Under the pieces are notes generated by a model. It worked only from the letters and a program-made list of their open reading frames with translations, searched no databases and was not told the DNA's origin. DNA of 64,000 nucleotides from an uncultured Acidobacteriota bacterium (GTDB taxonomy: Bacteria > Acidobacteriota > Terriglobia > Terriglobales > Acidobacteriaceae). Shown here one piece after another: positions 39,768-63,135 of the stretch; positions within the stretch are counted from its first letter, which is position 1; the number at the start of each line of letters is the position of its first letter. Both the position numbers and the translations under genes were made by a program. The stretch lies in NCBI GenBank assembly GCA_963837015.1, contig CAWIMI010000008.1:3035-67034 (forward strand). The letters run 5' to 3'.

Positions 39768-40745
39768 CTAGGCGAACGTCGGCAGTTTTATCAGGTCGCT
39801 GGGTGGCACCGGTTCCAGCGGTTGACCCGCCTTCTTCCACGCCGCCACGCCGCCAACGAGGACAAACGCGCTGAATCCCTGTTCTCGCAGTTGCAGCGCC
39901 ACCCGGGCGCTGGTCGCTTCGCGCGCTCAAGTACAGTAGACGTAAATGTCTTTGTCCTTGCGGAGGGTTTTGAGTTCCTCGGTGAGGTTGTTGGGTTCGA
40001 TGCGAATCGATCCTTTGATGCGCTCCGCGCCAGCGTCGTAGTAGCCGTGGCTTCGGACGTCAAGAATCAGAACCTTATCTTTTTCCTCCGAAGCCAGTCT
40101 CGTTGCCAGCTCTTCCACCTGTGCGCGCGGCACCACGCGGTACACCTTATTCTTGTGGTAAAGCCAGACACGGTAAACGATGTAAACGATGGCCGCTACG
40201 AAAAGTACTTCTTCAAATACGCGGCCTGCAGCCTGGAATCCACGCGTGATTGCGGCCAGAAAGTCGCGAAACAAGAATCCCAGAGTGCCGTAGGCCAGGA
40301 TATACAGCGACGCGCCAGCGGCGTCGAAGCGAAGGAACTGCATAGGGCGCATCTTCAGGCTGCCGGCGAGCGGCGGGGCCATGGTATTGACGCCGGGAAT
40401 GAACTTGGCGACCAGGAGCGTAGTCTTTCCCCGTTTGTAAAAGGACTCAGCCGAGCGCAGAACACACGACTCCGGATTCGCCGACAGGCGGCACAGAAGA
40501 CCCAGGAGGCCCCATCCCATGTAGCGGCCGAGGATGAAGAGCAGACTGTCGCCGAGCAGCATTCCGCTTAGGGCGACGAGTAAGACTTTAGGTACACTCA
40601 GACTGCCAGCTGCCGCGCCGGCTCCTCCGGCCACGAGAGCTACAGCCGCTGGAACGGGCAGGCCGATCGCTTCAGCCAGCACAACCACGAAGATGACAAG
40701 ATAACCGTGATGCGCGATCAGTGAGAGAATATTGTTCATCTTCAA
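39768..40745 (-). CDS. DedA-family membrane domain fused to a rhodanese domain, with in-frame TGA (39927-39929) at the catalytic Cys position: candidate selenoprotein, or a nonsense-disrupted gene
   Basis: DedA: HHGYLVIFVVVLAEAIGLPVPAAVALV. Rhodanese: VLILDVRSHGYYDAGAERIKGSIRIEP...DKDIYVYCT-TGA-AREATSARVALQLREQGFSAFVLVGGVAAWKKAGQPLE. The same frame continues for 52 codons to TAG 39768-39770. Confidence 0.75.
39894..39912 (-). promoter_or_regulatory. SECIS-like hairpin 14 nt downstream of the rhodanese TGA
   Basis: Minus strand: UGA-GCGCGCGAAGCGAC-CAGCGCC-CGGGU-GGCGCUG. Perfect 7-bp stem with a 5-nt loop containing GGU. Confidence 0.45.
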
Positions 40746-54217: not shown

Positions 54218-56317
54218 TCACCAGACCCTGCATTGATTAGCCCGCACCATGGGCGAACCCTTCTTGCAGGAGAAGGCTTCCTGAAACTCGGGCATATTGG
54301 AGACGACATTGTTTACCCGGTATTTCGGGATGGAATGCGGGTTTGTCAACACAATGGTCCGCATGAATTCAGGGCGAAGCTCTTCACACCATGAATAGGC
54401 GTAGGACACAAAGAACTTCTGCCGTGGTGTCCAGCCGTCGGCTTCCTTGGCGTCGAGCGACTTGCCCTCCGACTGCAGTTTGTTCGTTACCGCCATAAAC
54501 GCTAATCGCAGACCACCGTTATCTGCGGTGTCCTCGCCCTGAGTCAAATGTCCGTTCTGCTTCACGCCAGCCTCCCGAATTTCCTCGGTGTATTCGTCGG
54601 CGACGCACTGCCCGCGTTGGTCGTAGGCCTTGGCGTCTGCCTCCGTCCACCAGTCGCGGAGATTCCCCTGGGCATCGAACTTGCGGCCTTGATCGTCGAA
54701 GCCGTGCGTTATTTCGTGTCCGATTACCATGCCGATGGCGCCGTAATTGACCGGATCCCCCATCTTGCTGTCGAAGTATGGAGGCTGCAAAATGCCGGCA
54801 GGGAAGTTGATCGTATTCAACTGCGGATCATAGTAGGCATTGATGGTAGGTGGAGTCATGGTCCACTCCGCACGATCAACAGGCTTGCCGATTTTGTCGA
54901 GTTGCCGGTGAAACTCGAAAGTGGTTGCCTCGTGCACATTGTTGATATAACTGTCGCGTCCAACTTTCACCGAGGAGTAATCGCGCCAGTGGTTGGGATA
55001 TCCGATCTTGTCCTCGATGGCCCGCAGCTTGATTTTCGCCTGCTCTTTAGTTGCCGGTTGCATCCAGTCGATGGTGGTTATGTCCTGGTCCAGCGCGTGT
55101 TCGATGTCATGTACCATCGCGACCGTGCGCTGCTTGCTCTCCGGCGGAAAGGCCGCGGCTACGTACGCCTGCCCCAGAGCCATTCCAAGATCGCGGTCGG
55201 CGGCACGCACACAGCGGCGCCAGCGAGGCTGCAGCTGTCTTGCTCCCTGCAAAGTGTGTGAATAAAAATCCCAATTCTCGTCAACAAACGCCTTGCTCAA
55301 ATACGGCGCTGAGCCGTGGATCAGGTGCCAGCGCAAGTAAACCTTCCAATCATCCACCGAATGTTGCTGAATCAATGGTTCGAGGCCGCGGAAAAATTGA
55401 GGAGAAGATACGATGTAGTGTGGTAAAGAAGGTGGTGCTCCGACCACCTCGATGTAGTGCTTCCAGTCGAATGAAGGAGTCAGTGACTGAACCTGCTCCA
55501 AACTCATCTTGTTGTTCAGGTTCTTGGGATCGCGCCGCAGGACATTGTCCATCTGCGCTTGCGCCATGGCGGTTTCGATTGCGAAGATTGTCTTCGCGTC
55601 GGCAGCTGCTTGTTCCGGGCTTTCTCCTGAAAGCACCAGCATTTTCTTGATATGGGTCTCGTACTTGCCGCGGATTTCCTTGGATTTGTCGTCATCCTTG
55701 ATGTAGAAATCACGGTTCGGCAATCCCAGTCCGCCCTGATCGATAGCGGCGACGACTCTGCTGGCGTCGTCAAAATCCTGCTGTTGACCAAAGCCCAGGA
55801 GCGCGGCACGAGTCTGATTGTCGTCGCCTTGCCATGCGCCTGGAACGGCTTGGTGGATATGGGCCACCTGATCGGCTAGCTGCGACTTGCTGGTCATCTG
55901 AGCGATCCGCTCGAGTTCCGGCCTTAAATCCCGCGTCCCAGCGGCCTCAATTCCGGATTCATCCATGCAGGCAGCCCAATAGTCTCCGATTTTCTGCTCA
56001 TAATCCGTACGATTGCTGGTTGGTGCTGCCGCCTTCTCCAGGGCGTCGCGGAGGATATTCTCGTTCCAGTACTGCAAACCACTGCCAGTTCCCCAGGCCA
56101 CCTGATCCGCGGGAATGGGATTTGCCGCATTCCACCTGCTGCACGCGTATTTGTAGAAGTCCTGGCACGGGTCGAGCGACTTATCCACCATGCTGATATC
56201 GAAGTGCTCCAGCTTAGGCGTATTTTGTGACGCGGGCGCGCCCTGGGCGTAGGCATGAATGATGCCGAGCACGGGAAAAAGTAGAACGACTCCGATCGCA
56301 AGTCTTACGATACGCAT
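54218..56317 (-). CDS. M13 family metallopeptidase (neprilysin/PepO-like)
   Basis: The internal ATG 56317-56315 gives the signal peptide MRIVRLAIGVVLLFPVLGIIHAYAQ. Motifs: NAYYDPQLNTINFPAGILQ, GMVIGHEITHGFDDQGR, GEDTADNGG, and C-terminal CRVW. Confidence 0.9.
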   Translation of the reverse strand: MRIVRLAIGVVLLFPVLGIIHAYAQGAPASQNTPKLEHFDISMVDKSLDPCQDFYKYACSRWNAANPIPADQVAWGTGSGLQYWNENILRDALEKAAAPTSNRTDYEQKIGDYWAACMDESGIEAAGTRDLRPELERIAQMTSKSQLADQVAHIHQAVPGAWQGDDNQTRAALLGFGQQQDFDDASRVVAAIDQGGLGLPNRDFYIKDDDKSKEIRGKYETHIKKMLVLSGESPEQAAADAKTIFAIETAMAQAQMDNVLRRDPKNLNNKMSLEQVQSLTPSFDWKHYIEVVGAPPSLPHYIVSSPQFFRGLEPLIQQHSVDDWKVYLRWHLIHGSAPYLSKAFVDENWDFYSHTLQGARQLQPRWRRCVRAADRDLGMALGQAYVAAAFPPESKQRTVAMVHDIEHALDQDITTIDWMQPATKEQAKIKLRAIEDKIGYPNHWRDYSSVKVGRDSYINNVHEATTFEFHRQLDKIGKPVDRAEWTMTPPTINAYYDPQLNTINFPAGILQPPYFDSKMGDPVNYGAIGMVIGHEITHGFDDQGRKFDAQGNLRDWWTEADAKAYDQRGQCVADEYTEEIREAGVKQNGHLTQGEDTADNGGLRLAFMAVTNKLQSEGKSLDAKEADGWTPRQKFFVSYAYSWCEELRPEFMRTIVLTNPHSIPKYRVNNVVSNMPEFQEAFSCKKGSPMVRANQCRVW

Positions 56318-56659
56318 CGATGTCTCCTGGATTTGAAAGGAAAAGTCTGATCCTGTGTAGCGGAACAACGAGCCGTCTTGGTTTGAGTAGCGCGCAAGTT
56401 GCTGGTAGCCTGCGCCAAGAAGTTTACCGCAGTTTGCTCAGCTCCGCTTGTGTGTTGGGCCGTTTCCGTCCTATCAAGTGATCGGTGTTCGATGTCAGTT
56501 ACAACTGCTTTTGCGAAGTAACTCGCGCTCAGATTATTCGAAGTTCGAGGCTTCAGCGGGATCGATAGAAAATGAAAGGATAATCGGAAGAAAAAAATGG
56601 GAGCTTTATTCGCAAGCCTAAGGACTCTCTGAATAAGTAAGTTTCTGACTGCGCAAGTG

Positions 56660-57315: not shown

Positions 57316-58432
57316 CTAGTACCGTGACCGCGTGATTATGTAGTCAAAAGTGGCGCGAGCCTTTTTGCGAGTAAATTGCCATTGGATCGGAAGGTGATGG
57401 CGATTCATACGGCGGCTCCAGGCGAGAGTTTGCCTGCGTAGAGAAGCCCGATCTCCGATCCGGCGTTGACCGAGGCATTGCCGCGAAAACAAGCTGATCG
57501 CGATCTCGGCTTGGTTCAGCCAACTGCCGTGCTTGGGGGTGTAATGCACCGTAAACCGATCCCACAGCCAGTTCCCGGCCTTCTCGCCAAAGCGTTCCAC
57601 CACCGCCTTGCGCGTATGCGAACTCAGATTGTCCAACACCAAATGGATGGTGTCCGCCTCAGGGTAGCGGATCGCAACCTCCAGCAGGTAGTCGGCAAAT
57701 TCGGGCGAAGAGCGATGAGCCGTGACCTTGGGGAAGTACTGCCCCGCTTTCGGTTCGACTCCACAGAACACGTTGGCGGTGCCGCAACGCTGGTATTCGC
57801 TATCGCGCCGCGCGATTCGTCCCGGCCTCATGGCCCAGGGAGGACGAACCTCTTGGTGGAGAACCACCGGTTTCTCATCCACACAAACCACCGGTTCCCG
57901 CTCACTCAGAGGCTTTTCATACACCGCCAAGATGTCCTCCATGCGCCGGATGTACTCCTCATCCAGTTCCGCCACGCACCACATTTTTTTCCCGCCACGG
58001 CTTCAGGTCGTGGCTTTCCAGCAAGACCCGAATCGTTTCCCGTCCCACCCGCGGCACCAGTTTGCGTTTCACCACCTCTTCGGTCAGCAGGCGTACCGTC
58101 CAGCGCGAGCGGCCTTCCGGCGGAGGACCACACGCCAGCGCCACGATGCGTTGCCGATGCTGCGCATCTAGCAAGGCCGCTTTCCCCGGTCGGGCCCGCT
58201 CGTATAAGGCGCGCTCCAAGCCGCCTTGCCGGTAGCGTTGGCTGGTCAGCCACACCGTCTTCGGAGTCAAGGCCGCGTTCTTCGCCACCTGCCGAACGGT
58301 TTGCCCCTCCGCCAGTTGCCGCAGGGCCAACGCTCGCAACACGGTGCGCACGGGCTGCAAGCCGCTGTGTAACAAGTGCCGTAACTCCTGCTGCTCTTGC
58401 TTGGACAGCCGAACCTGCGATTGCTTCTTCAT
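57316..58432 (-). CDS. IS630-family transposase in two frames (HTH part 58432-57959, DDE part 57984-57316) joined at an A7 slippery run
   Basis: The first frame ends ...LKPWREKNVVRGGTG*. The other frame reads (K)MWCVAELDEEYIRRMEDILAVYE...VCVDEKP...VLDNLSSH...HYTPKHGSWLNQAEI. The A7 run is at 57984-57990 (minus strand). Confidence 0.85.
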
Positions 58433-58507
58433 GTCCCAGCTATAAGCTCGGACATGCTCGTGAACAAGTATCTATCTGTATTACTATCTATGCGGTCATA
58501 GTACTAG
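57316..58507 (-). mobile_element. IS630-family insertion sequence with TA target duplication
   Basis: Ends are TA|CTAGTACCGTGACCGC... and ...GCGGTCATAGTACTAG|TA, i.e. imperfect inverted repeats CTAGTAC(C/T)(G/A)TGACCGC. TA is found at 57314-57315 and 58508-58509. Confidence 0.75.
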
Positions 58508-58589
58508 TACCTCAGCCATGGTGGGTTGATGACCTAGCTTTCCACTTGGATTTCTTGGCTCCGCCTTCGCTCATCGAACCGGCTTTCAT

Positions 58590-59573
58590 CTACGCGCTCG
58601 CTGTCAGCAGCTTCTGACGACTCAGAAACAGATTGACCAACCCGCAGATCACGAACAGCTGATGCGCGTTCTTCTTCAGTCCTCGGTAACGCAGCTTCAC
58701 AAATCCAAATTTCAACTTCATCACCTGAAATACGTGCTCCACCTTGGACCGCACGCTCGATTTCGTCCGATTCTTCGCCCGCTCCTCTTCGTCAATCCCG
58801 TTCTTATAGCGGTAGCGACGGTGCGTGTGGTCCTGCGCCCGGGGTGCGCACTCCTGGATAACCTCAGTTTGTCCGCGATAAGCCTGATCACCCCATACCC
58901 GGGTTTCTTCCCCATGCAACAGATCGGGCAGCACCCTCGAGTCGGCCACATGGGCCGGCGTGGCTACCGCCGTATGGATGATCTTGGTCTTGCTGTCCAC
59001 TCCTACATGGGCCTTCATCCCGAAAAACCACTGCTTGCCTTTCTTGGTCTGGTGCATCTCCGGATCGCGCTGCTGCTCTCGGTTCTTGGTCGACGTAGGC
59101 GCGTGCAGGATGGTTGCGTCTACGATCGTGCCGGTGGTGATGCGCACTCCTCGGGCTTGCAAGTGCAGATTGACCGTGCCCAGAATCTTTTCCCCAAGTC
59201 GATGTTCTTCCAGCAAATGCCGAAACTTGCACACCGTGGTTTCGTCCGGCGCCGGCTCCTGCCCCAGATCGATCCCCACGAACTGCCGCATCACCGGCGA
59301 GTCATACAGGGCCTCTTCCACGGCCGGGTCCGATAGGTTAAACCACTGCTGCAGAAAATAAATCCGCAGCATCCGCTCCACTCCCACCGGCGGGCGCCCA
59401 TTCCCCGGCTTGGGATAATGGGGTTCGATTCGCGCCCACAACTCTCGCCACGGGACCACTTGTTCCATTTCTTCCAGAAATACCTGCCGTCGTGTCTTTT
59501 TCGTGTACCGCTCAAAACCATTCATCGTCGCCAGACTCCTCTGTTGTTTGTTCCTCGATCTCATCTGGCGCAA
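58590..59573 (-). CDS. IS5-family DDE transposase
   Basis: FLEEMEQVVPWRELWARIEPHYPKPGNGRPPVGVERMLRIYFLQQWFNLSDPAVEEALYDSPVMRQF...DATILHAPTSTKN...VWGDQAYRG, the DDE_Tnp_1 pattern. The start may be the internal ATG (MNGFERY, 59525). Confidence 0.9.
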   Translation of the reverse strand: MRQMRSRNKQQRSLATMNGFERYTKKTRRQVFLEEMEQVVPWRELWARIEPHYPKPGNGRPPVGVERMLRIYFLQQWFNLSDPAVEEALYDSPVMRQFVGIDLGQEPAPDETTVCKFRHLLEEHRLGEKILGTVNLHLQARGVRITTGTIVDATILHAPTSTKNREQQRDPEMHQTKKGKQWFFGMKAHVGVDSKTKIIHTAVATPAHVADSRVLPDLLHGEETRVWGDQAYRGQTEVIQECAPRAQDHTHRRYRYKNGIDEEERAKNRTKSSVRSKVEHVFQVMKLKFGFVKLRYRGLKKNAHQLFVICGLVNLFLSRQKLLTASA

Positions 59574-59652: not shown

Positions 59653-60057
59653 TTAGCTCATCGGGCTGATGTCTGAGACATGGATCGTGCTCGTGTTGCT
59701 GTCGAGGCTCCCACTTACCTTTACCTGCTGGCCGACGTATTTCTTGGCCTTCTGCTGATCATCCAACTGGTAGCTCATGTCGCTGGTCTTCAGCACATAC
59801 TTGCCACCTGCCTTCACCACGGTTCCGCTGAAAGATGAGGCTTGGTTGGCTTGCATGGAACTCGATGAATCCTGGTCCGGGGAACTCGGTTGGGGCTGTG
59901 TTCCTTGCTGATCCGCAGTGGGTTGCTGTGTGTTCTGCGTATCCGAAGCCGATGGCTGGGTGCTCGGCTGCGCTGACTGATCCTGCTGGGCGAAGCCGAC
60001 CGCAGAAAGTGCCATCGCTAGCGCCATCGTGGCTATTGCTGTAAGTAGTTTCTTCAT
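59653..60057 (-). CDS. Small secreted protein with a Gln/Ser/Pro-rich linker
   Basis: Signal peptide MKKLLTAIATMALAMALSAVGFAQ, then the C-terminal module FSGTVVKAGGKYVLKTSDMSYQLDDQQKAKKYVGQQVKVSGSLDSNTSTIHVS. Confidence 0.7.
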   Translation of the reverse strand: MKKLLTAIATMALAMALSAVGFAQQDQSAQPSTQPSASDTQNTQQPTADQQGTQPQPSSPDQDSSSSMQANQASSFSGTVVKAGGKYVLKTSDMSYQLDDQQKAKKYVGQQVKVSGSLDSNTSTIHVSDISPMS

Positions 60058-60240: not shown

Positions 60241-61041
60241 TTAAGGGGTGTCCCGCTTTTCTGTCTCGGACCGCGCCTGGGTCGAGTGCACTACCCGAGT
60301 TACGGCTGACTTCAGTTCCTCAGCGTTGAAGCCAAACGGACCGGGTCTGCTCTTATAAGCCACGCGTCCTGTGGAGTCGATCAAGTAAAGGCGGTCTGGC
60401 CACGCGGTGTAGGCCCGCTCGGTTGAGTTGCCAAATTCATCCAGCACCGCGGGAATCTCTATTCCGAGCTTGCGCACGCAAGCTCCGGCCACAAAACCGC
60501 GCTCTTCCTCGCTTCTCGGACTGGCAAACACAACCTTGTCCTCGAGGTTGCTGTGCATCTGCCAGACGTCACTGGGATGCGCTTCGGTAATGTAGACCAC
60601 GAGGAAAGCAGCCTGGCTTCCATACTCTTTGTAGAGCTTGTTGAGGGCGGGCACCTCCCGCCGGAACGGAGGTCAAGTGTAGCTGCCAAATATGAGTACC
60701 ACCGGCTGTCGTTGAGCGGTAAACGCAGACAGCTGTATCTGCGCGCTCTTGTCCAGCTTGGTTAAAGAAAAATCTGGTGCGGGGTCGCCTATTTGCAGCG
60801 TGCCGCTACGGGCGCGCATCCACAACGTTTCGAATGGAAGTACGAGAAACGCGACCGGACCAGGAACTCTGGCCATTACCCGAGCAAACTTCTCGGGGGG
60901 CTGCCGCATGACCGTGTACAACGCCCCGCAGGCGAAGATCCACAAAAGCGCGAGCACCGCGAAAGCCGTAACCAACCGCGTTCTTACCGACTCGCCCTTC
61001 GAATTCAGAACCTTCGTCCCCACAAACTTTGTTGCCCCCAC
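60241..61041 (-). CDS. Iodothyronine-deiodinase-like thioredoxin-fold protein with in-frame TGA (60673-60675) at the active-site position: candidate selenoprotein
   Basis: ORFs 60673..61041 and 60241..60654 are in the same frame and are joined by ...QPVVLIFGSYT-TGA-PPFRREVPALNKLYKEYGSQAAFLVVYITEAHPSDVW. This matches the deiodinase signature FGS-x-T-U-P-x-F and the downstream (Y/F)(I/V)xEAHPSDxW. There is an N-terminal TM anchor. Confidence 0.8.
60646..60662 (-). promoter_or_regulatory. SECIS-like hairpin 10 nt downstream of the deiodinase-like TGA
   Basis: Minus strand: UGA-CCUCCGUUCC-GGCGGG-AGGUG-CCCGCC. Perfect 6-bp stem with a 5-nt loop containing GGU. An alternative fold, CCUCCG...CGGGAGG, starts directly after the UGA. 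Confidence 0.45.
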
Positions 61042-61085
61042 CGGAGTTACGCGATTATAAAGATCGCCAACCAGCGGTCAATAAT

Positions 61086-62516
61086 ATGAAAGCAGTAGCC
61101 GGTGGTGATCGCGCGATACTCAAAACTACCGCGCTGGCACTCGATGCGCCCCCGTTATATCCTCAGGTCGTGCTTCACCCGCCCCCGTCCAGTCGGTCCC
61201 CAACCTCGGGTCTATTCCTGGGGCTCATTATTACTCTGGTCGCGGTCGTGGCCTACTCGTGGTACATCACGGTGCAGATTTCGGGTCTTCGCAAACTGCA
61301 AAACGATCTTGCCGGACGGAACCGTAAAGACTCGCTCCAACTGCTGCGTATCCAGAACGATTTGAATTCACTCGCGCTGGCCATGCGCGACATGCTCGAC
61401 AATGACGAACCCTACCCGCTCACGGCCTGGTCAGCGCAGTTCGAACGCATTCGCGCTGACTTGGACGATGCGCTCAAACTTGAAGAGCAGGTCGCCGTGG
61501 CCGAGCGAACCCCCGAGCAAAGACAGTTCTTAGGAAACTCGATAACCCAATTCTGGGGCGCGGTCGACCGTACCTTTGCGCTTGCTCGCGATGGCAAGGA
61601 CAACGATGCGCGCACCCAGATCCGGGTTTCGTTGCAGGCGCGTCAGGCAGCCCTAAGCACGGCAGTGGCACGGTTGCTGGTGCAGAACAATGAAAGCGAA
61701 GAACAGGTTGCGGGGCGCATCGGAGGGATCTACGATCGCGTGCAGCGGCAAGTCTACGTATTTCTTGCCGCAATCCTTGGCGCAATCCTGCTAACCAGCC
61801 TGTATCTGATTTACTCCAACCGCCGGCTCTTCGCGCAACTCGCTGCGCTTTCTGAGCAACGCAGCGAGCTGGCGCAGAAACTCATTTCTACCCAGGAATC
61901 CACTCTGCTGCACATCTCGCGCGAACTGCACGATGAGTTTGGCCAGATCCTCACCGCGATCGGCTCGATGCTGAGCCGGGCGCGAAATCATGTCCCCGAA
62001 GACTCGCCGCTGCGCGTTGAGCTGCGTGAAGTTTCCGAGATTGCGCAATCCACGCTCGACAAGGTGCGCAGCCTTTCGCAAGCGTTGCACCCGGTCATGC
62101 TGGACGAAGCCGGCCTCGAGAGTACGATTGATTGGTATATCCCAGTGGTGGAAAGGCAGACAAGAATTGAAATATCGTACGAGAAATCGGGAACGCCCTT
62201 TCCGGTCGACGGCAGCGTTGGGGTTCACATTTACCGAATCCTCCAGGAAGCACTCAACAACCTCGCCCGCCACTCCGGAGCGCGCCAGGCCTCGGTGCGG
62301 CTTCGCTTCCTTCCCGCAGGATTGGAACTGGAAGTTGAAGACCACGGGGTAGGATTTGTGGAACAATCTACAAGATCAGGCATTGGACTCGTGGCGATGC
62401 GTGAACGCGCGGAGTTGTTGCGTGGAAGTATCGAGTTTCTCAGGCCCGCGGAGGGTGGAACGCTGGTTCATCTGAAAGTGCCAATAGAGAAGGCGGCGGA
62501 GGCGCATGTCGAATAA
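61086..62516 (+). CDS. Sensor histidine kinase (HisKA_3 / NarX-LiaS type)
   Basis: Two TM segments, then the H-box HISRELHDEFGQILTAI and HATPase motifs (LQEALNNLARHSGA, VEDHGVGF, GIGLVAMRERA). I prefer ATG 61086 over TTG 61029. Confidence 0.9.
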   Translation: MKAVAGGDRAILKTTALALDAPPLYPQVVLHPPPSSRSPTSGLFLGLIITLVAVVAYSWYITVQISGLRKLQNDLAGRNRKDSLQLLRIQNDLNSLALAMRDMLDNDEPYPLTAWSAQFERIRADLDDALKLEEQVAVAERTPEQRQFLGNSITQFWGAVDRTFALARDGKDNDARTQIRVSLQARQAALSTAVARLLVQNNESEEQVAGRIGGIYDRVQRQVYVFLAAILGAILLTSLYLIYSNRRLFAQLAALSEQRSELAQKLISTQESTLLHISRELHDEFGQILTAIGSMLSRARNHVPEDSPLRVELREVSEIAQSTLDKVRSLSQALHPVMLDEAGLESTIDWYIPVVERQTRIEISYEKSGTPFPVDGSVGVHIYRILQEALNNLARHSGARQASVRLRFLPAGLELEVEDHGVGFVEQSTRSGIGLVAMRERAELLRGSIEFLRPAEGGTLVHLKVPIEKAAEAHVE

Positions 62517-63135
62517 GATTTCGGTCCTGCTGGTCGACGACCATAGCCTGGTGCGCCGTGGTTTTCGACGCATCCTTGAGGACGAACGCGACATTTCCGT
62601 GGTTGGTGAGGCCAACGACGGCGCCGAGGCGGTCCGTCTAGCGGAGCAACTGCGCCCGCAGCTGATCGTCATGGACTGCGCTCTTCCCGGCATGAGCGGA
62701 TTGGACGCGACGCGGCGTATCCTCCAGAAGTTTCCCGATACCGCCATCTTGATGTTGAGCATGCATTCGGAAGACACCTGGGTTCATCAAGCGCTGGATG
62801 CAGGTGCCCGCGGCTACATCCTCAAGAGTGCTGTGGATATGGAATTGGTAACGGCTATCCGGCGAGTCGTCGCGGGTGAGATTGTGCTCGACCCGCAAGT
62901 ATCTCGTGCTGCCACTTTGAAGGGCGAGCGGAATTCCGGAATTACTGTGCGCGAACTCGAAGTGCTGCAGCTTATCGTCGCTGGCAAGTCGAACAAGGAA
63001 ATTGCCGCCGAACTTGATCTGAGCGCCAACACGGTGGCCGTTCACCGCGCCAACATTATGGACGCGCTGGGGATTCATAAGACCGCGGACCTTGTTGTCT
63101 ACGCCATTCGCAGCGGCTTGGTGAACATTCGGTGA
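62506..63135 (+). CDS. NarL/FixJ (LuxR-type HTH) response regulator
   Basis: ISVLLVDDHSLVRRG...LIVMDCALPGMSG receiver domain, and the C-terminal HTH LTVRELEVLQLIVAGKSNKEIAAELDLSANTVAVHRANIM. It overlaps the kinase stop. Confidence 0.95.
   Translation: MSNKISVLLVDDHSLVRRGFRRILEDERDISVVGEANDGAEAVRLAEQLRPQLIVMDCALPGMSGLDATRRILQKFPDTAILMLSMHSEDTWVHQALDAGARGYILKSAVDMELVTAIRRVVAGEIVLDPQVSRAATLKGERNSGITVRELEVLQLIVAGKSNKEIAAELDLSANTVAVHRANIMDALGIHKTADLVVYAIRSGLVNIR

Follow-up and report, generated by a model that had tools for sequence, protein, structure and literature searches.

An acidobacterial deiodinase-like gene with a conserved UGA at its catalytic position and a hairpin resembling a bacterial selenocysteine insertion element

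The 64,000-nucleotide (nt) stretch of DNA analyzed here (the window), taken from contig CAWIMI010000008.1 of an uncultured Acidobacteriota bacterium, carries on its minus strand a deiodinase-like gene (positions 60241–61023) with an in-frame UGA at the position of the catalytic residue. Our reading, in which we have high confidence, is that the gene is intact and encodes a thioredoxin-fold member of the deiodinase family, about 260 residues long, with a single N-terminal membrane anchor and a UGA-encoded catalytic selenocysteine (Sec), and that the hairpin following the UGA is a bacterial selenocysteine insertion sequence (SECIS). Bacterial Sec-containing deiodinase-like proteins with a SECIS in the coding region have been known since 2005, and the present locus adds a new member, with good support, to that group.

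From the GTG at 61041 to the TAA at 60243–60241 the minus strand reads as one frame, the sole internal stop of which is the TGA at 60675–60673. A sequence-only reading of this DNA had proposed that the open reading frames (ORFs) 60673..61041 and 60241..60654 share a frame and that the product across the TGA runs VVLIFGSYT-U-PPFRREVPALNKLYKEYG; translation bears out both points. Around the TGA, the minus-strand translation is ...QPVVLIFGSYT*PPFRREVPALNKLYKEYG...FLVVYITEAHPSDVW..., and farther along, after VVLIFGSYT-*-PPFRREVPALNKLYKEYG, it contains ...VVYITEAHPSDVW.... The longest ORF version of the gene, starting at GTG 61041, encodes 266 residues. Orthologs place the start at the second GTG, 61023, which aligns with their ATG or other start codons, giving a predicted coding sequence (60241–61023, minus strand) of 260 residues including Sec, with TAA 60243–60241 as its stop. 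The in-frame UGA (60673–60675, minus strand), the putative Sec codon of the motif FGSYT-U-PPF, is residue 117 counted from 61023 and residue 123 counted from 61041; the residue numbers used below (Ser120, Sec123, Glu153, Cys188, and others) are counted from GTG 61041. In the protein, a short basic N-terminus is followed by a single hydrophobic helix (60975–60910), and this in turn by the catalytic domain. The hydrophobic segment, LVTAFAVLALLWIFACGALYTV (60910–60975, minus strand), read by eye as a predicted N-terminal transmembrane anchor with a short basic segment before it, is retained among orthologs and carries like charges on both of its flanks.

In terms of family membership, the read-through product, with Cys put for the stop, matches the Pfam family PF00837 (T4_deiodinase) with 116.4 bits (cutoff 27; E = 1.6e-33), the match spanning residues 73–248 and profile positions 65–234 of 237. 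Its matches to AhpC-TSA (1.4e-11) and Redoxin (9.7e-11) are weaker. The top sequence matches in the PDB are the mouse deiodinase Dio2 (9h48, 1.5e-24) and Dio3 (4tr3, 1.2e-23). The fold comparison used an AlphaFold2 model of P0002, an 88%-identical homolog, and not of the window protein (predicted local distance difference test score 88, predicted template modeling (TM) score 0.84). The best PDB fold match of this model is 4tr3 (E = 1e-13, TM score 0.77, root-mean-square deviation 2.2 Å, 36% identity), and the next is 9h48 (E of about 1e-13, TM score 0.82); ResA-type thioredoxin-fold proteins trail at about 1e-9, and peroxiredoxins are also behind. Across the Dio2 and Dio3 structures, the identity of the window-family protein is 29–36% and the TM score is 0.77–0.82. 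The assignment to the deiodinase family made from the sequence alone is thus supported by the PF00837 match and by Dio2 and Dio3 as the best PDB sequence and fold matches. The best NCBIfam match, NF038285 ("deiodinase family protein"; E = 4.5e-55), reaches 187.5 bits, under the curated cutoff of 250, and covers only profile positions 177–341 of 347; the score below the cutoff and the unmatched N-terminal half of the profile place the window protein outside the NF038285 equivalog.

The motif FGSYT-U-PPF aligns with FGSATCPPF in Dio2 and with FGSCTCPPF in Dio3; the two crystal constructs have Cys in place of Sec. The TGA lies on the catalytic residue, as had been claimed: it aligns with the Sec/Cys position, and homologs with a Cys codon at this site exist. 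The catalytic network of Dio2 comprises Ser127, Thr129, Tyr157, Glu160, His162, and His182, plus Trp167 (PMC11592359), and the window protein keeps Ser120, Thr122, Sec123, Tyr150, Glu153, His155, and Trp160 of this network. The Glu-Ala-His of YITEAHPSDVW (60577–60585, minus strand) aligns, in the comparison with Dio2 and Dio3, with the Glu and His of the deiodinase proton relay; in an alignment of 33 sequences Glu153 is invariant, and Ala154 and His155 are nearly so. A near-invariant cysteine, Cys188 (60478–60480, minus strand), lies 65 residues past Sec and is a candidate resolving cysteine. It is kept in at least 90% of the 33 sequences, and a Cys codon stands there in 81 of 81 orthologs.

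Conservation of the TGA was followed in three sets of relatives. For the genome set, one genome per species was scanned, at least 588 stretches were found to encode relatives, and the best 80 were analyzed, which together with the window make up an alignment of 81 sequences. The metagenome set consists of 80 loci from a scan seeded with Cys-type proteins, and the protein database set consists of 120 homologs. The best 80 genome relatives are 63–82% identical to the window protein (pairwise identity 62–98% among the 81 sequences), and 79 of them are labelled Acidobacteriota (Terriglobales, Acidobacteriaceae, Sulfotelmatobacter). One locus among the best 80, L060 (DATJNK010000028.1), is labelled Verrucomicrobiia, which could reflect a binning error or horizontal transfer. 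The aligned codon is TGA in all 80 genome loci and in 74 of the 80 metagenome loci, with TGC in five and TGT in one. The distribution of Cys and Sec among homologs, which the sequence-only reading had named as a check, therefore comes to TGA in 155 of 161 loci, the window counted, and TGC or TGT in the rest. The description of the family as classically Sec-dependent needs a qualifier, as bacterial Cys forms are common and account for 62 of the 120 database homologs.

Two further residues occur at the Sec site in deposited proteins. Tryptophan is found there in 43 close database homologs (JGI records, FGSYTWPPF). P0033 (locus L165, 501–1214) is the only one of the 43 that was compared with its DNA; the codon is TGA, and the deposited protein is a code-4 translation. 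The short JGI contigs with FGSYTWPPF have apparently been called using a code in which TGA is Trp. Glycine is found in the variant P0052 (L163, 257–976; L164, 97–816), represented by two proteins from two independent samples, which makes a sequencing error unlikely. The possibility that this glycine is a TGA read with code 25 was rejected, as the DNA codon is a true GGA; the variant may have lost its catalytic activity or taken on another role.

The hairpin, GGCGGG-AGGUG-CCCGCC (60646–60662, minus strand), is 17 nt long, begins 10 nt past the UGA, and has a 6-bp stem and a 5-nt loop containing GGU, with 16 nt from the UGA to the loop. Its position and perfect pairing are as first described from the sequence alone. 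Folded by itself it has a free energy of −11.3 kcal/mol (z = −2.4; 4 of 200 shuffles are as stable), and in a context of 61 nt it is unexceptional (z = −1.1). The fold of a single sequence is weak evidence, and the case for the hairpin therefore rests on the comparison of orthologs. The published model of the bacterial SECIS (bSECIS) has a loop of 3–9 nt, a stem of 4–16 bp, a G within the first two loop positions, 16–37 nt from UGA to loop, and a minimum free energy of −7.5 kcal/mol or lower (PMC13188914). The window hairpin fits this model on every count (6 bp, AGGUG, 16 nt, −11.3 kcal/mol). A hairpin not conserved in TGA-bearing orthologs had been named beforehand as grounds for doubt, and the outcome is the opposite: 151 of the 156 TGA forms fit the bSECIS model on every count, and the other five depart from it in energy alone (−6.0 to −6.8 kcal/mol). 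Only one of six Cys forms fits the model. In five of the six, AUG (Met) replaces GUN (Val) at codon +7, counted from the Sec codon, and the GGU loop motif is gone; the equivalent segments of the Cys forms have folding energies of −1.2 to −6.9 kcal/mol, compared with −8.4 to −11.3 kcal/mol in the Sec forms. The Sec-to-Gly variant keeps the hairpin largely intact (−10.6 kcal/mol), as expected for a recent change.

A second UGA-recoded gene is predicted in the same window. This gene (39768–40739, minus strand) encodes a DedA/VTT membrane domain and a rhodanese domain, with TGA 39929–39927 in the loop YVYC-T-U-AREATS, giving a CxU motif in the active-site loop. A hairpin, CAGCGCC-CGGGU-GGCGCUG (39912–39894, minus strand), begins 14 nt after the TGA. 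The best NCBIfam match of the product is NF041203, "rhodanese-related (seleno)protein", a family named for its LYCAU motif (88.8 bits against a cutoff of 115). Among 120 homologs, 84 terminate exactly at ...YCT, and the other 36 have a Cys there and continue. An in-frame tail follows the TGA in 16 related loci, and in 15 of these the tail of 52–53 residues is intact and conserved to the stop; locus L173 has a frameshift in the tail. The hairpin is identical in all 16. Acidobacteria have been reported to possess selenoproteins (PMC1794560). The presence within 64 kb of two conserved recoded genes, each belonging to a different known selenoprotein family, makes it very likely that the source organism decodes Sec.

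Several observations weigh on the other side. A tblastn search with Escherichia coli queries gave no SelA, SelB, or SelD homolog in 1.38 Mb comprising the window and related loci, and ARAGORN gave no tRNA in the window and no tRNA-Sec in 60 of the 80 genome loci; these nulls say little, because sel genes need not be linked to the deiodinase-like gene, and the sequence available from the source genome for the search was the 64-kb window. The hairpin is short, and its UGA-to-loop distance of 16 nt is the minimum allowed. Classical covariation is weak in the alignment of the 80 genomes, with one double change and a score reached by 215 of 500 shuffles, which can be ascribed to a stem that is nearly invariant. 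No SECIS or relevant Rfam family was found in the whole window at gathering thresholds or in 60400–60900 in a permissive scan, a result that is uninformative because bacterial SECIS elements lack one general covering model. As regards the enzyme, the distal relay histidine of Dio2, His182, is replaced by Pro in the window protein (ASPRSEEER vs. AAHRNQEDR), so it may not work by the same chemistry as the animal enzymes.

In the sel gene search, weak SelD-like matches in L058 (12043–12750) and L064 (10750–11727) were rejected as candidates. They are ThiL (IAGIGDDCAIL...TTD), a thiamine-monophosphate kinase of the PurM-like superfamily, and sit about 5–6 kb from the deiodinase-like gene.

One alternative, which we regard as improbable, is that the UGA is read by a route other than Sec, through an opal-suppressor or allo-tRNA, a SelC*-type tRNA-Cys, or near-cognate Trp, and that the hairpin merely stimulates this. 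Allo-tRNAs of the 8/4 and 9/3 types, possible missense or nonsense suppressors, occur in Acidobacteria, and SelC* tRNA-Cys is known from other phyla and unreported for Acidobacteria (PMC5389517). The failure to find tRNA-Sec or a sel gene in the window or the related loci searched can also be cited for such a route. However, the UGA coincides with the catalytic Sec/Cys residue in a family known to include Sec forms, the alternative codons of relatives are Cys only, plus the one Gly mutant, and the hairpin fits the SelB-type bSECIS model, its G-G/U loop motif and spacing included. A general suppressor also conflicts with TGA as a normal stop, which closes 13 of the 40 long ORFs of the window and indicates a standard genetic code.

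Alternatively, the hairpin could simply follow from the conserved peptide RREVPAL together with a GC-rich codon bias, an explanation for which the conserved peptide itself, the in-context fold, and a covariation score within the range of the shuffles for the genome set can be cited. The choice of synonymous codons makes this explanation very improbable. Codons +3 to +14 (60631–60666, minus strand; F-R-R-E-V-P-A-L-N-K-L-Y) are under the strongest synonymous constraint in the gene: in the codon alignment of 81 genes, the 11 scored codons of this segment have a mean relative synonymous entropy of 0.36, the minimum among 104 windows of codons, vs. 0.79 for the remaining 103 scored codons (Mann-Whitney p = 1e-6). 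Arg +4 is CGG in 80 of 81 sequences and Arg +5 is CGG in 78 of 79; other invariant Arg positions are mostly CGC, with relative entropy of 0.60–0.76. Glu +6 is GAG in 81 of 81, and the remaining Glu positions are divided about 50:50. Pro +8 uses CCC and CCU only and Ala +9 almost only GCC and GCU; Pro +1 uses three codons and Pro +2 all four. At Arg +4, Arg +5, Glu +6, and Pro +8 the codon choice thus departs from that in the rest of the same genes. In the 3′ arm the wobble bases are C or U facing G, so that G-C or G-U pairs are kept.

The pattern of variation in the stem points in the same direction. The six stem pairs are formed in 99.2% of cells, as against 64–67% when the 3′ partner is slid by 1–3 columns. 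In the wider metagenome set, CGC at +4 is accompanied by G as the last base of codon +9 in 10 of 11 unique sequences, vs. 5 of 111 for CGG, and this combination, seen in at least two groups, rebuilds the stem with one bulged base. Both variants with CAG at +5 have CCU, which yields an A-U pair. Three Cys forms retain R-R-E yet lose the stem and the GGU loop, which speaks against a by-product of the peptide. Judged from this comparison of sequences, the hairpin is a selected RNA element.

The sequence after the TGA is as well conserved as that before it. Measured against the window, median identity is 74% for the part preceding the TGA and 76% for the part following it, so that the downstream half is under the same purifying selection as the upstream half, and the relatives have no frameshift and no further stop past the TGA. 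The motifs beyond it (EAHPSD-W, WPDR, GPFGF) are invariant or near-invariant. A pseudogene, or a gene from which only the N-terminal fragment is made, in which the TGA would be a nonsense mutation followed by decaying sequence, is barely credible and is effectively refuted by these comparative data and by the same TGA in 154 other independent loci, even though gene callers split or shorten the gene (fragments P0110, P0111, P0114, P0117, and P0120) and IS5 and IS630 transposases lie just downstream.

With the UGA taken as a Sec codon, a mechanism can be proposed in which the hairpin (60662–60646) would recruit SelB with Sec-tRNA(Sec) to the ribosome, so that the UGA would be read as Sec and not as a stop; when selenium or the machinery is scarce, termination would leave a non-functional N-terminal fragment. 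In the enzyme, Sec would be the nucleophile within a Ser-Thr-Sec and Tyr-Glu-His-Trp network together with a peroxiredoxin-type Arg (WPDR). Cys188, 65 residues downstream, would probably resolve the oxidized selenium, followed by a thiol reductant.

For the bacterial deiodinase-like family a redox role was proposed in 2005, and thyronines were deemed unlikely bacterial substrates (PMC1088965). The substrate here could be either a redox substrate, as in that proposal, or, by analogy with deiodinases, a halogenated aromatic. A more specific idea is that the soil-acidobacterial U-P-P-F clade is a selenium-dependent reductive dehalogenase that shares the selenium-halogen chemistry of thyroid-hormone deiodinases and acts on halogenated phenolics occurring naturally in peat and forest soils; we consider this unlikely to be correct. 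If true, the clade would stand as a bacterial ancestor-type for the deiodinases of animals and as a class of dehalogenase distinct from the known bacterial halogen-removing enzymes. Our literature search turned up no study on the function of bacterial deiodinase homologs.

Prokaryotic deiodinase-like selenoproteins with Sec and Cys forms and a bacterial SECIS were described by Zhang et al. in 2005 from the Sargasso Sea (PMC1088965), and the family is listed in reviews of 2022 and 2026, with the motif tabulated as UxxC and with marine examples (PMC9312934, PMC13188914). The present gene resembles this prokaryotic family in being bacterial, in belonging to PF00837, in having Sec (UGA) and Cys forms, and in having a SECIS-like element right after the UGA. 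Unlike the tabulated UxxC, the motif in the window and in all 156 TGA-form loci is U-P-P-F, with no Cys at +3 and a Cys 65 residues on. The U-P-P-F proteins may form a subgroup of their own, apart from the marine examples, or the table entry may be loose.

With vertebrate Dio1–3 the window protein shares FGSxT-U-PPF, YIxEAHPSDxW, the Ser, Thr, Sec, Tyr, Glu, His, and Trp of the catalytic network, and a predicted N-terminal anchor; it differs in the predicted bacterial-type SECIS in the coding region, as opposed to an element in the 3′ untranslated region, and in the Pro in place of Dio2 His182. As in the E. coli fdhF-type bSECIS, a stem-loop comes straight after the UGA and has a small apical loop with G and then G/U; in the GGU of its loop and in its spacer of about 11 nt, the hairpin is similar to the minimal fdhF element. 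Unlike the fdhF-type element, it has a stem of only 6–7 bp without an extended lower helix, its main form lacks the bulged U (a bulged variant occurs in some lineages), and SelB binding is predicted. Peroxiredoxin/AhpC-TSA and ResA-type proteins share the thioredoxin fold, the Thr-(Sec/Cys) pair, and the conserved Arg, whereas their matches to the window protein are far weaker, the CxxC motif is absent from it, and the deiodinase-specific insertion and motifs are present.

Beyond the literature, we found the clade to be abundant in acidobacterial assemblies and its motif to be U-P-P-F, as in animals. We also found the putative SECIS to lie inside a highly conserved stretch of coding sequence, RREVPAL, in which replacement of Val by Met tracks that of Sec by Cys. 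In the protein database the deiodinase-like gene appears as fragments or, in JGI records, at full length with Trp at the catalytic site, and the DedA-rhodanese gene suffers the same kind of truncation. Misannotation of such Sec genes means that the size of the selenoproteome and the selenium dependence of soil Acidobacteriota, a dominant soil phylum, could be underestimated. The closeness of the active site to that of animal deiodinases (FGSxTUPPF...EAHPSD-W) would make these proteins a tractable model for deiodinase origin and ancestral chemistry.

Shortly upstream of the gene, within the divergent intergenic region, a sigma-70-like promoter, TTGACC-16 nt-TATAAT (61054–61081, minus strand), is predicted from its match to the consensus (11 of 12 positions); the scan of this region returned one site, and shuffles average 0.4. 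Divergent from the gene are a HisKA_3-type sensor kinase (61086–62516, plus strand), the most likely start of which is ATG 61086, and a NarL/MctR-like response regulator (62506–63135, plus strand), together a two-component system. The sequence-only reading had put this system about 45 bp away, which agrees with the gap of 44 bp from GTG 61041; from GTG 61023 the gap is 62 bp. A system of this type neighbors the gene in no more than about 20 of the 80 genomes, divergent upstream or co-directional downstream, and the existence of both arrangements hints at a functional tie that is recurrent but optional, and not at a defining partner. A large FG-GAP/ASPIC-like protein is often present with the co-directional or divergent two-component arrangement. 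No conserved operon or synteny was found in the 80 loci: the two-component system, LemA/DUF2207-like proteins, S8 peptidase, and others are each present in at most 28 of them, and with no neighbor exceeding that count the gene looks monocistronic.

Downstream, an insertion sequence (IS) block with transposases of the IS5 (58590–59573) and IS630 (57316–57984) families separates the deiodinase-like gene from pepO (54218–56368), which encodes an M13 peptidase. In nine related genomes pepO follows the deiodinase-like gene directly, at about +1.1 kb, and the IS block (57316–59573) therefore looks like a recent insertion. Directly downstream of the deiodinase-like gene is a 134-residue ORF (59653–60057, minus strand) with only a weak match to a single-stranded DNA-binding protein (E = 8e-4). 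This ORF, which follows the deiodinase-like gene in only about six related loci, may belong to the inserted mobile block.

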